A model generated the notes under the pieces. The model was not told the DNA's origin. It was given only the letters and a program-made list of their open reading frames with translations, and searched no databases. The position numbers were made by a program, and so were the translations under genes. This document shows, in pieces, positions 24,241 through 60,640 of a stretch of 64,000 nucleotides of DNA (the first letter of the stretch is position 1; every line of letters begins with the position of its first letter). The stretch comes from Stegostoma tigrinum (lineage: Eukaryota), in contig NC_081402.1 in NCBI RefSeq assembly GCF_030684315.1, positions 1,736,001 to 1,800,000 on the forward strand. Reading direction: 5' to 3'.

Positions 24241-24537
24241 CTATTCCTCCTCCTCACCCTTCCTGTCCAGAGAGGAAGAGTCGACCCCCACCTCTTCATA
24301 ATCCTTCTCGAGTGAGGCCATGTCTTCCCGTGCATCCTGGAACTCCCCTTCCTCCAGACCCTCCCCCACGTACCAGTGGACAAAGGCTCGCTTGGCATAC
24401 ATCTTGTCGAATTTGAGGTTCAGGCGGGTCCAGGCCAAGGAAATGGCAGTGGTGTTGCTCAGCATACAGAGGGCCCTCTGTACCTTCGCCAGGTCACCGC
24501 CTGGTACCACTGTCGGGGGCTGGTAGTTGATGCCAAC
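24241..24537 (-). CDS. TUBA: Alpha-tubulin copy 1 exon 5
   Basis: [19 protein letters not shown] at 24163-24168 (minus). Confidence 0.95.
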
Positions 24538-27500
24538 CTGTTGGGAAGAAGCAAAACTGTTACCTTGGAGTTGCTTCAGAAGCAGGTTCAGCATTGAATC
24601 CACAAAACACTCAATACCCTGCTAGATGTGCATTTATCAACATGTTTGAGTCTTTCCATCACAACATGGAAAACTGTTCATTGCCAGGCCGTCTTCCCTC
24701 AGATTTAAAATACAATATTCTAATGGGATCCCTGTGTTACTGTCAGCAAGCAAGAACTACACGGAGGCTCTGAGAATCAGGAGGTCATTGTTTGGTTTCC
24801 GGGCAGGTTCTGTCCTGGATCTTTCCGAGCTGCAGTCAATGTCTGAACTGCAGAGAATTTTTCCACAGTTCCTCTGGGAATGATCTGCTCAGGCTAAAGG
24901 GTCTGCACCAATGCTGTCCCTGGAAGGGAGATGCATTTTGAGCTCAATGTAGTGACTATTGTACACAGCCATGATCAGATTGTTGCAATGCTGTTCCCCC
25001 AGGGCCCGGTTGATTCAACCCAAAACCCACACTTACCTTGAACCCAGTTGGGCACCAGTCAACAAATGCGATCGAGCGCTTGGTCTTGATGGTGGCAATG
25101 GCAGCGTTAACGTCCTTGGGCACCACATCTCCTCGGTACAGCATGCAGCACGCCATGTACTTGCCCTGGCGGGGGTCACACTTCACCATCTGGTTGGCTG
25201 GTTCAAAGCAGGCGTTGGTGATCTCAGCCACTGAGAGTTGCTCATGGTAAGCCTTCTCAGCAGAAATAAGAGGGGCGAAGGTTGCCAAAGGGAAGTGAAT
25301 GCGGGGATAGGGGACCAGGTTGGTCTGGAACTCTGTCAGGTCCACATTGAGGGCACCGTCAAACCGGAGTGACGCCGTGATGGACGACACCACCTGTGCA
25401 ATGAGACGGTTGAGGTTGGTGTAGGTTGGTCGCTCAATGTCAAGGTTTCGTCGACAAACATCATAAATGGCTTCGTTGTCCACCATGAAGGCACAGTCGG
25501 AGTGCTCGAGGGTGCAGTGGGTGACCAGCACTGCATTGTACGGCTCGACCACCGCGGTGGAGATCTGGGGGGCAGGGTAGACGGAGAACTCCAGCTTGGC
25601 TTTCTTGCCGTAGTCGACGGAGAGTCGCTCCATCAGGAGGGAAGTAAAACCTGAACCGGTGCCACCCCCGAAACTGTGGAAGACAAGGAATCCCTGCAGC
25701 CCTGTGCACAGATCAGCCTGTTGGGAGGAAACAGGTAGAATTAAGTGAAAACAAACAGTAAATTGTCCCATCCATGTGCATAAGGAAAACCATCACTTCG
25801 ACTGGAACAACATCAAGATCCTGGAACAGGTGAAGCAGAGGCAAACACGGGAATTCCTGGAGGCCTGGTTCTCCACTGGGGAAAGCCAACAACAAACATG
25901 CAGAGCTAGACCCGTTTCCACGCCATTGTGAAGGAAAACTGGAAGTGAGGCTATTGAGCTCAACTGCATTCGGAGTTTAAATAACTGATGGGAAAATACA
26001 ACAGCGCTTTGTCGGAGCCTGCACCGATGATGCTACCCAGTAGGGTAATGAAACACCTCCTCCTGGAGCAGTGAGCCAGCCAGCCACAACATGATGATGC
26101 TACCCAGTAGGGGAATGAAACGCCTGTGGAGCAGTGAGCCAGCCAGCCACAACATCCACAACCCCAGCTCCCACCGAATTCAACCTAATTACCTCAATTA
26201 ATGGTGGGATGCAGCTTCAATTTCAACCAACTGTGTCTGTCTCTGGAAAGGTTCAGGGTTTGACACTTTTGTCATGTTGTTCTGTCACTGGTGCATAAAT
26301 AACGTGCGTACCACACAAATGTCAGACATTAACCATCTTCAGCTAGAGGGAATCGAACCATCTCCCCTTGGCATTCAATGGCTGAATCCCCACTATCAAC
26401 ATCCTAGGGGTTACCATTGACCAGAAACCATAACTGAACCAATCATATCAATACTGCTTCTGAAAGAACGGATCAGAGCATAGGTATCCCTCAAGGAGTC
26501 ACTCCCCTCCTGACTATCAGAAGCCTGTCCATCGACCAATATCCACAACCCGAGTGACTAATCTACTCTAAAAACTAACATCAATGTTTGGGACAGACAG
26601 GCAGCACAGGCTTGAGAATGCGGCCTTTCAGGGTTGGGAATGAAGCAGGGAGTGCTGGAGATTTCTTCAGTTGGAACCTAAATGTAGGGGGATCTATGAG
26701 AACCTACCACCTTCCGGACGCGATCCAAGACCAGATCCACAATCTCTTTGCCGACGGAGCAGTGGCCCCGGGCGTAGTTGTTCGCTGCGTCCTCCTTGCC
26801 ACTGATGAGCTGCTCAGGGTGAAAGAGCTGTCGGTAGGTGCCGGTGCGGATCTCATCTGGGGATGGGGAACAGAGATGTTACAACAGGAACACTGTGAGA
26901 ATTCAGGCCATATTTCAGTGAGAACTCTGAGGGAGACAGCCTTCCCCAATCCGTCCTCTTACCGATCACAGTGGGTTCCAGATCGATGAAGACCGCCCGG
27001 GGAACGTGTTTGCCTGCCCCAGTCTCACTGAAGAAGGTGTTGAATGAGTCGTCCCCTCCTCCGATGGTCTTGTCGCTGGGCATCTGTCCATCCGGCTGGA
27101 TGCCATGCTCCAGGCAGTAGAGCTCCCAGCAGGCATTGCCGATCTGCACACCGGCCTGGCCAACGTGGATTGAAAGACACTCTCGCTAGAAATGCAAGGG
27201 CAGGTTAATATTTCCATTGAATGGAGAGTCATTAATTTCCACATTGAAATTTGGAATGGATGAAGCAGGGCTGGGAATGGGCAGCAACGCGTCCGGGCAC
27301 TATTAAATGAGGATCCCCAGTTTGGCAATTCATCCTGCGTTCCATCCTAATCTTGTCTCCGCGCAGTTTGCACCAGATCCCGGGAAATCCCCATCTCCGT
27401 GACGCCTTTCTGTGATTTTTCCATTCCATCTGGGGCCTGGAGTCGCACCTTCCCTCCCCGGAACTGCAGCCTACACTCTCCCTGTGTATCCTCATTTCCA

Positions 27501-59500: not shown

Positions 59501-60640
59501 ACGGCGTCACTCCGGTTTGACGGTGCCCTCAATGTGGACCTGACAGAGTTCCAGACCAACTTGGTCCCCTATCCTCGCATTCACTTCCCTTTGGCAACCT
59601 TCGCCCCTCTTATTTCTGCTGAGAAGGCTTACCATGAGCAACTGTCAGTGGCAGAGATCACCAACTCCTGCTTTGAACCAGCCAACCAGATGGTGAAATG
59701 TGACCCCCGCCAGGGCAAGTACATGGCATGCTGCATGCTGTACCGAGGAGATGTGGTGCCCAAGGACGTCAACGCTGCCATCGCCACAATCAAGGGCAAA
59801 CGCTCAATCCAATTTGTTGATTGGTGCCCAACTGGGTTCAAGGTTAGTGTAGGGCTTGTGTGAAATTGGGGACCTGGGGGTGCCTAGAATGAGTGAATTT
59901 GACAAGAGGTGAACACTATGCTGTCCATTCCAGGTCAAATCATGTTCATCAATTCGTGCATAGAATTAGAGAATGAAGAAAAGGGTCTCCTGTTCAATTT
60001 TGAGGAGGGTCATGAACCTTTGGAGCAATATCCCCTAGAGTGCAGGGAGGCTGGATCATTGAATAAGAAATTGGAATTACAATCCGATCCAGTTGATTCT
60101 ATTGATTGGTGAGATTGCTAGAGGAGCCAAATGGAATCCTCCTGTTCCTAAGTCTCATCTTCTTCCAAAAAGATGCTGACATTTCCAATTGAGAGGAATG
60201 GAGAACCATTGCATGAACGTTTTGAAATAAAGATACAAGTGTGCTCATGGCTATCTCTGACAACTGAGCCATTAATGAGCCAAACCTTTTGATTTCCAAG
60301 TCCAAAGCAAATGACATCTGACAAATGTCCTTCTCCACAGGTTGGCATCAATTACCAGCCCCCAACAGTGGTACCAGGGGGCGACCTGGCAAAGGTGCAG
60401 CGGGCCCTCTGCATGCTGAGCAACACCACCGCCATTGCTTTTGCGTGGACCCGGCTCAATATCAAATTTGATAAGATGTACGCCAAGCGGGCCTTTGTTC
60501 ACTGGTACGTGGGAGAAGGCCTGGAGGAAGGAGAGTTCCAAGACGCAAGGGAGGACTTAGCCTCGCTTGAGAAGGATTATGAAGAAGTGGGGGTTGACTC
60601 ATCCTATCTGGACAGAAAGGCAGAGGAGGAGGAAGAATAA
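56541..60640 (+). CDS. TUBA: Alpha-tubulin copy 4 (subtype B), 5 exons, 451 aa
   Basis: Exons 56541-56543, 57110-57332, 57425-57573, 59162-59842, 60341-60640; [29 protein letters not shown]. Confidence 0.95.
57110..57332 (+). CDS. TUBA: Alpha-tubulin copy 4 exon 2
   Basis: 223 nt, [16 protein letters not shown]. Confidence 0.95.
57425..57573 (+). CDS. TUBA: Alpha-tubulin copy 4 exon 3
   Basis: 149 nt, [15 protein letters not shown]. Confidence 0.95.
59162..59842 (+). CDS. TUBA: Alpha-tubulin copy 4 exon 4
   Basis: 681 nt, [17 protein letters not shown]. Confidence 0.95.
60341..60640 (+). CDS. TUBA: Alpha-tubulin copy 4 exon 5
   Basis: 300 nt; AATAAA at 60745-60750. Confidence 0.95.

Follow-up and report, generated by a model that had tools for sequence, protein, structure and literature searches.

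Four genes of a divergent, tyrosine-less elasmobranch alpha-tubulin lineage in a 64-kb stretch of the Stegostoma tigrinum genome

Gene set and exon organisation

The stretch of Stegostoma tigrinum DNA analysed here (64,000 nucleotides; assembly GCF_030684315.1, contig NC_081402.1, positions 1,736,001 to 1,800,000; hereafter the window, whose own numbering is used throughout) contains four alpha-tubulin genes, G1 to G4, the products of which lack the C-terminal tyrosine and carry a set of outer-surface substitutions shared with other sharks and rays. The cluster extends from 24241 to 60640, that is, from stop codon to stop codon of the outer genes G1 and G4; no other tubulin fragment was found in the 64-kb window. 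G1, G2 and G3 lie on the minus strand, and G4, on the plus strand, is the head-to-head inverted partner of G3, the two being one residue apart with 64 synonymous differences. Each gene possesses five coding exons: a predicted ATG-only exon 1, placed at the sole ATG directly followed by GT upstream of exon 2, and exons of 223, 149, 681 and 297 or 300 nt. All introns follow the GT-AG rule, and the open frames specify 450, 450, 451 and 451 amino acids for G1 to G4, respectively.

G1 (24241..27817, minus strand) is composed of the ATG exon at 27817-27815 and exons at 27185-26963, 26856-26708, 25717-25037 and 24537-24241. Its proximal promoter (27878..27962) contains a conserved block at 27962-27941, the motifs of which we take to be a heptamer of Forkhead type and, beside it, an RFX-like half-site, together with CCAAT at 27918 and TATAAA at 27883; the polyadenylation signal AATAAA is found at 24163..24168. 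G2 (37108..40375, minus strand) has its ATG at 40375-40373 and exons at 39567-39345, 39238-39090, 38633-37953 and 37404-37108, with a promoter (40436..40520) comprising the block (40520-40499), CCAAT (40476) and TATAAA (40441), and AATAAA at 37031..37036. G3 (46611..51878, minus strand) consists of 51878-51876, 50261-50039, 49939-49791, 48381-47701 and 46910-46611; its promoter (51940..52024) includes the block at 52024-52003, CCAAT at 51980 and TATAAA at 51945, and its AATAAA is located at 46481..46486. For G4 (56541..60640, plus strand) the exons are 56541-56543, 57110-57332, 57425-57573, 59162-59842 and 60341-60640, preceded by a promoter (56395..56479) with the block at 56395-56416, CCAAT at 56439 and TATAAA at 56474, and followed by AATAAA at 60745..60750. 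In every gene CCAAT is about 35 nt 5′ of TATAAA, which is 66-67 nt 5′ of the ATG, and AATAAA is 71-124 nt past the stop codon. An earlier, sequence-only reading of this DNA had described four intact genes with TATA/CCAAT promoters and polyadenylation signals, and the exon models, open frames and motif positions bear it out.

Copy integrity and selection

The comparison of nonsynonymous with synonymous rates (dN/dS) that the sequence-only reading had proposed revealed no neutral evolution: all six pairs of G1-G4 give ratios of 0.004-0.075, at dS values of 0.12-0.35. By sequence criteria, these are functional, intact genes under strong purifying selection. That they are instead decaying duplicates, or one gene multiplied by an assembly artefact, is very improbable. 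Some skate records of the same lineage do look degenerate, the GGGTGSG motif being changed in P0098, P0099 and P0381, for example; against this, all four genes of the window are intact, no dN/dS value exceeds 0.075, the copies diverge at synonymous sites, and their introns and flanks are mostly unalignable. An artefact is further opposed by the recovery of 0.88-0.90 of sampled G4-region words in four public runs, which come from one study and are possibly the assembly's own source.

Similarity among the copies is mostly limited to the exons and proximal promoters, except that G1 and G2 also resemble each other in the surroundings of their 3′ halves; most intron and flanking sequence does not align between copies. 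In five of the six pairs the two copies resemble each other more closely in exon 4 than elsewhere in the coding exons (p < 2e-5), and exon 3 is identical between G1 and G2, which suggests gene conversion. Such conversion has probably taken place among G1-G4, with codon-level constraint as the alternative for exon 4.

Encoded proteins

All four products contain the Pfam domains Tubulin and Tubulin_C, and their best PDB matches are exclusively alpha chains, whose residue numbering they follow. The retention of GGGTGSG, E254, K40 and the MREC signal, as claimed from the sequence alone, holds in all four genes (GGGTGSG in 4/4; E254 is alpha-specific), and the N-site GTP residues are likewise kept. 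In total 45 of 45 functional positions that were checked are canonical, among them K40, E254, R402, E414 and E415 (the last three presumably numbered one higher in yeast). Because these residues are kept and the genes are under purifying selection, the proteins would be expected to polymerise, to form normal dimers with beta-tubulin and to support motors.

Against the canonical vertebrate TUBA1 consensus, 396-400 of 437 residues are identical and 32 positions are changed in every copy. The 15 substitutions previously listed as common to the four genes (Y108C, T109S, Q128L, T190V, T193C, Y272F, H309Q, E386L/F, A389T, D392N, H393L/I, L397K, M413L, S419Q and E420D) all occur in 4/4. A disulfide between C108 and C193 is unlikely in the cytosol. 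The earlier list overlooked two further fixed changes, I188V and A427S, as well as the tail, which lacks the terminal tyrosine and is less acidic. The tails end DRKGEEEE or DRKAEEEEE, without the usual EEY, and have a net charge of -4 or -5, whereas six tails from bony vertebrates range from -6 to -8; the tail of one shark outgroup paralogue is also at -4.

Relatives and phylogeny

Relatives were collected from protein searches (120 matches listed each) and cluster look-ups, with one representative per 90% cluster. The resulting alignment contains 30 rows of the clade to which G1-G4 belong and 83 other rows, some positions being covered by fewer clade rows (28). Among the matches listed, the same residue set occurs in at least 15 species, comprising 11 sharks and 4 batoids. 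Thirteen positions are fixed in the clade and at least 90% canonical outside it (108, 109, 188, 190, 193, 386, 389, 393, 397, 413, 419, 420 and 427); at four changed positions, the same residue is present in 83/83 outgroup rows. Two of the 15 listed substitutions do not extend to the whole clade: Q128L is present in 12/28 clade rows, and Y272F in 6/30, where it is restricted to a sub-branch with G1-G4.

When 393 fetched proteins (515 aligned rows covering at least five sites) were scored for this signature, two clean groups emerged: 55 rows (53 proteins, all elasmobranch) matched at 75% or more and the other 460 rows at 40% or less, a split that is partly circular. Of the 98 proteins that were new in the last protein search, four matched, all of them elasmobranch. 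None of the 393 fetched proteins named from outside the elasmobranchs bears the signature. With the representative of one large cluster (5,862 members, 15 of them covered) the G1-G4 proteins share 88-90% identity, and 15 of the 36 members of the nearest cluster were covered; chimaera or other members of the clade could be hidden among the remainder.

Maximum-likelihood analysis with IQ-TREE (LG+G4; 54 of the 113 rows, hand-picked to remove near-duplicates) recovers the clade at 100/100 and unites G1-G4 and a protein from Chiloscyllium at 95/99; the pairing of the clade with another shark paralogue is supported at only 0/54. In a quick mixture-model tree of 36 rows, which include TUBA8, TUBA3, TUBA4A and TUBAL3, the clade has a Shimodaira-Hasegawa-like approximate likelihood-ratio support (SH-aLRT) of 100 and joins none of these four, the backbone being without resolution. 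The phylogenetic check suggested by the sequence-only reading thus places G1-G4 within none of the characterised isotypes. TUBA8, represented by two reptile proteins, and the clade occupy separate branches of support 100 in the quick tree, and the clade does not group with the TUBAL3-type proteins of birds, reptiles, amphibians and sturgeon, nor with the mammalian testis TUBA3. The proposal of a specialised isotype with a remodelled outer surface is upheld by the 100/100 clade, its 13 fixed sites and the low dN/dS values, and that of a lineage expanded in cartilaginous fish by the occurrence of the signature in sharks and rays and by the tandem copies. As the trees and records have it, G1-G4 are part of one tandemly expanded elasmobranch alpha-tubulin lineage.

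The clade consists of a slow, multi-copy part, which holds G1-G4, and a fast one with identities of about 80-88%. Members of the fast sub-branch, from sharks and sawfish (P0094, P0108, P0113, P0121, P0125, P0126, P0138 and P0220-P0225), are more divergent than G1-G4 and show changes in the K40 loop and in most of the M-loop (276-288), which would affect lateral contacts. The thorny skate, Amblyraja radiata, has at least 20 distinct clade records (including XP_0328913xx), distributed over three large sequences plus three small scaffolds, with 13 on a single sequence of 52.9 Mb. Motifs are damaged in some of them, and judged by these records the skate set is a birth-and-death expansion. A separate elasmobranch alpha-tubulin paralogue (P0162 and P0226-P0239; a cluster of 26 on a 100/100 branch) has a short tail with a final Tyr, and helices H11-H12 that are canonical except for D392N in P0162; it was not grouped with TUBAL3 in the trees.

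Comparison with known alpha-tubulins

The closest known proteins are elasmobranch RefSeq entries named "tubulin alpha(-1A/1B/1C/1D/8) chain-like," which share the clade, the residue signature and the Tyr-less acidic tail. Of these, XP_043540607.1 of Chiloscyllium plagiosum (P0218) is 97-98% identical to G1-G4 over 296 columns, and XP_032885929.1 of A. radiata (P0092) is 92-93% identical. They differ in carrying automatic and inconsistent names and in that Y272F is confined to the sub-branch of G1-G4. TUBA1A, TUBA1B and TUBA1C have the terminal Tyr that G1-G4 lack and differ from all four at the 32 positions mentioned above; G1-G4 also possess an intron after codon 352, which we assume to be missing from human TUBA1.

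Like G1-G4, the tissue-restricted vertebrate isotypes TUBA8, TUBA3 and TUBAL3 are divergent paralogues, and TUBA3 and TUBA8 have five exons. The mammalian testis isotype TUBA3 shares L128 and M317 with G1-G4 but, unlike them, has an EEY tail. Sampled members of TUBA8, TUBA3 and TUBAL3 are canonical in H11-H12, and their intact tails end in Tyr or Phe, in contrast to those of G1-G4. The tail of TUBA4A resembles that of G1-G4 in that its gene-encoded form ends in Glu without Tyr (P0400); TUBA4A nevertheless belongs to a separate clade and retains the canonical H11-H12, which G1-G4 do not. TUBA4A can be tyrosinated.

Tyrosine-less tail and enzyme docking residues

Six of the 53 clade proteins are truncated or mis-ended. 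The 47 with an apparently real C-terminus end in Glu (43), Val (2) or Ala (2), and none ends in Tyr or Phe. A passage of PMC3563685 names H393, R390, H309, P175, E433, E207, E386 and R308 as the alpha residues contacting TTL, and one of PMC9750192 names E433, H393, E386, Y108, E420 and E414 for VASH2. Among the contacts so named, three of eight for TTL (H309, E386 and H393) and four of six for VASH2 (Y108, E386, H393 and E420) are replaced in all of G1-G4. The Tyr-less bird alpha-tubulins, here labelled TUBA4A-like, keep all 11 contact residues, whereas the clade of G1-G4 has replaced several.

Conservation among the 83 outgroup rows reaches at least 90% at 359 positions, and the clade departs at 52 of them; measured against this background, six of ten of the named TTL and VASH2 contacts depart (p 0.0009), and with the background cut to the 24 polar positions of residues 381-437 four of six do so (p 0.018), both values being optimistic because the idea was formed only after the substitutions had been seen and the rows are related. 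E433 and R308, which the earlier list does not contain and G1-G4 keep, show no variation in the outgroup and vary in the clade. Within the clade, positions 386, 393, 308 and 433 are variable, which is what the loss of a contact would predict, and 309 also varies; positions 109, 190, 413, 419 and 420 have a single new residue in every clade row.

The reading that we favour, tentatively and as somewhat short of probable, is that of an elasmobranch isotype without the terminal Tyr and with replaced TTL/vasohibin docking residues, which would lie outside the tyrosination cycle and would likely serve sperm or other flagellated cells. Its predicted place outside the cycle follows from the Tyr-less tail together with the several docking residues replaced. 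TTL would dock poorly on such a protein, the tail of which, in contrast to the TUBA4A tail, would rarely be tyrosinated; the TTL-contact positions 386, 393, 309, 308 and 433 would then have drifted within the clade, and a second set (108, 109, 190, 193, 397, 413, 419, 420 and 427) would have been fixed anew, giving a changed outer face. Microtubules built from the protein would stay outside the tyrosination cycle, and copy number might supply dose. Release from the cycle is a plausible mechanism.

Several observations weigh against this reading. When the TTL set is taken alone and a surface of 120 residues is assumed as the background, significance is not reached (p 0.16-0.36). Five of the eight named TTL contacts, including R390, R308 and E433, are kept in G1-G4, and their tails still end in the acidic pair that TTL requires according to the same passage of PMC3563685. 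Only one of six VASH1 interface-3 residues given in a passage of PMC7449697 is changed. H309 varies outside the clade too, being kept in 65/81 outgroup rows. The overlap with the docking sites may be incidental, since H11 and H12 serve many other binders.

Outer face and motor binding

The main rival is that the outer face has been remodelled for a new partner, the loss of TTL/vasohibin contacts being a side effect and a new apolar patch on H11 the substance of the change. The hydrophobic pattern on one face of H11 is left over by contact loss alone: residues 386, 390, 393 and 397 project between -20 and +40 degrees when placed on an ideal helix wheel, 386 and 393 have switched from polar to hydrophobic, and 393 is L, V, I or M in 30/30 clade rows. 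Across sharks and rays, little or no variation is seen at K397, L413, Q419, D420, V190 and S109, and the human TUBA1A variants S419L, L397P and H393Y are classed as pathogenic or likely pathogenic under microtubule-associated protein (MAP) binding ("MAP binding, superficial") in the part of PMC6371496 that lists them. On the other hand, position 386 takes M, L, F, V, G and S, with an entropy of 2.4 bits versus 0.09 outside the clade, and therefore looks like released constraint rather than a new contact. We regard a new partner as possible, if on the unlikely side.

A combined form, in which the Tyr-less, dock-altered isotype uses its freed H11 face to bind a lineage-specific partner and tens of copies provide for spermiogenesis, seems doubtful. 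Under it such a partner might be, for example, the longitudinal columns that are fixed at doublets 3 and 8 in the sperm of chondrichthyans, sperm that a passage of PMC8812575 describes as long and as having such columns. A change specific to the doublet outer junction was also considered for G1-G4 and is not supported: of the five junction residues given in a passage of PMC5418579, none departs in the slow subclade and three depart in the fast one.

The sequence-only reading had put altered motor binding to the fore, and Y108C, M413L, S419Q and E420D could in principle retune kinesin or dynein stepping. These four are found in 27-30 of 28-30 clade rows, and the kinesin footprint includes M413 as well as the acidic tip of H12, as described in passages of PMC4383081 and PMC4358365, from which a short contact list was used. 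As a main effect it is nonetheless improbable: R402, E414 and E415, which alanine scanning found critical for ATPase activation of dynein and kinesin (passage of PMC4298687), are changed in 0/3 cases and are invariant in 30/30 clade rows; the kinesin contact at M413 is through the backbone (passage of PMC4383081); and E420D retains the charge. The substitutions overlap better with TTL/vasohibin docking.

Promoters and likely place of use

The four promoters share the conserved block about 140 nt 5′ of the ATG, with 61% invariant columns versus 11.5% upstream, and it is kept across the deepest split. The composite Forkhead/RFX-like pattern occurs four times in the window, once per promoter, versus 0.51 expected, the pattern itself having been drawn from these paralogous promoters. 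No MYB site, no full cAMP response element and no GATA site common to all four turned up in the promoters of G1-G4. RFX sites are over-represented among promoters of testis and motile-cilia genes, according to passages of PMC4745085 and PMC5245798. The motif thus hints at use in sperm or cilia, and the genes might be expressed under an RFX-type cilia/spermatid programme. Three points speak against such use: the exact X-box consensus is present in 0/4 promoters; a one-mismatch X-box is present in 3/4, among 19 such matches in the window; and mouse Tuba1a is unchanged in Rfx2 mutants.

The same molecular change could belong to another cell, as a maternal (oocyte) tubulin or that of the blood-cell marginal band. 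Among precedents, the Tyr-less TUBA4A is the platelet isotype, and divergent maternal alpha-tubulins occur in flies and frogs; a high copy number would suit any cell that needs tubulin in bulk. GATA sites, however, are not shared by the four promoters, only G4 having matches within 400 nt, and the conserved block carries the RFX-like half-site. We consider this placement unlikely, and continue to favour, with the reservations given, an isotype of sperm or other flagellated cells.

Significance

Divergent, tissue-restricted alpha-tubulins are of a known kind. What is new, on the alignments presented, is a vertebrate lineage that combines changes at near-invariant H11-H12 residues with loss of the terminal tyrosine. 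The clade is not described in the literature searched, outside of which the genes may be listed in supplements or subscription papers; the word "tubulin" is absent from the main text of the paper on the catshark genome, from that of the Squalomix preprint on tandem genes, and from 12 of the 24 supplementary files that accompany the whale shark paper. In humans, brain malformations are caused by variants at 393, 397 and 419. Since H11-H12 barely vary across animals, a shark and ray lineage with new and retained residues there amounts to a natural experiment. If the favoured reading is true, this would be a motor-supporting tubulin poorly read by the tyrosination enzymes, a ready tool with which students of the tubulin code could split the effects of the tail from those of body docking, and a starting point for work on the unusual sperm that cartilaginous fish have. 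If the clade alone is real, it represents a modest addition to tubulin nomenclature.

Neighbouring features

The only host-gene neighbour identified in the window is the final coding exon of a gene for a transcription factor of the MiT/TFE family (MITF, TFEB, TFE3 or TFEC) at 1035-1448 (plus strand; Pfam DUF3371, E 4e-33); an atlas search gave a best score of 0.80, to unrelated names. A 759-amino-acid open frame at 13689-15968 (minus strand) has a weak reverse-transcriptase match, below the Pfam cut-off, and its C-terminal segment resembles, in our assumption, a GIY-YIG nuclease; it is probably a copy of a Penelope-type retrotransposon.

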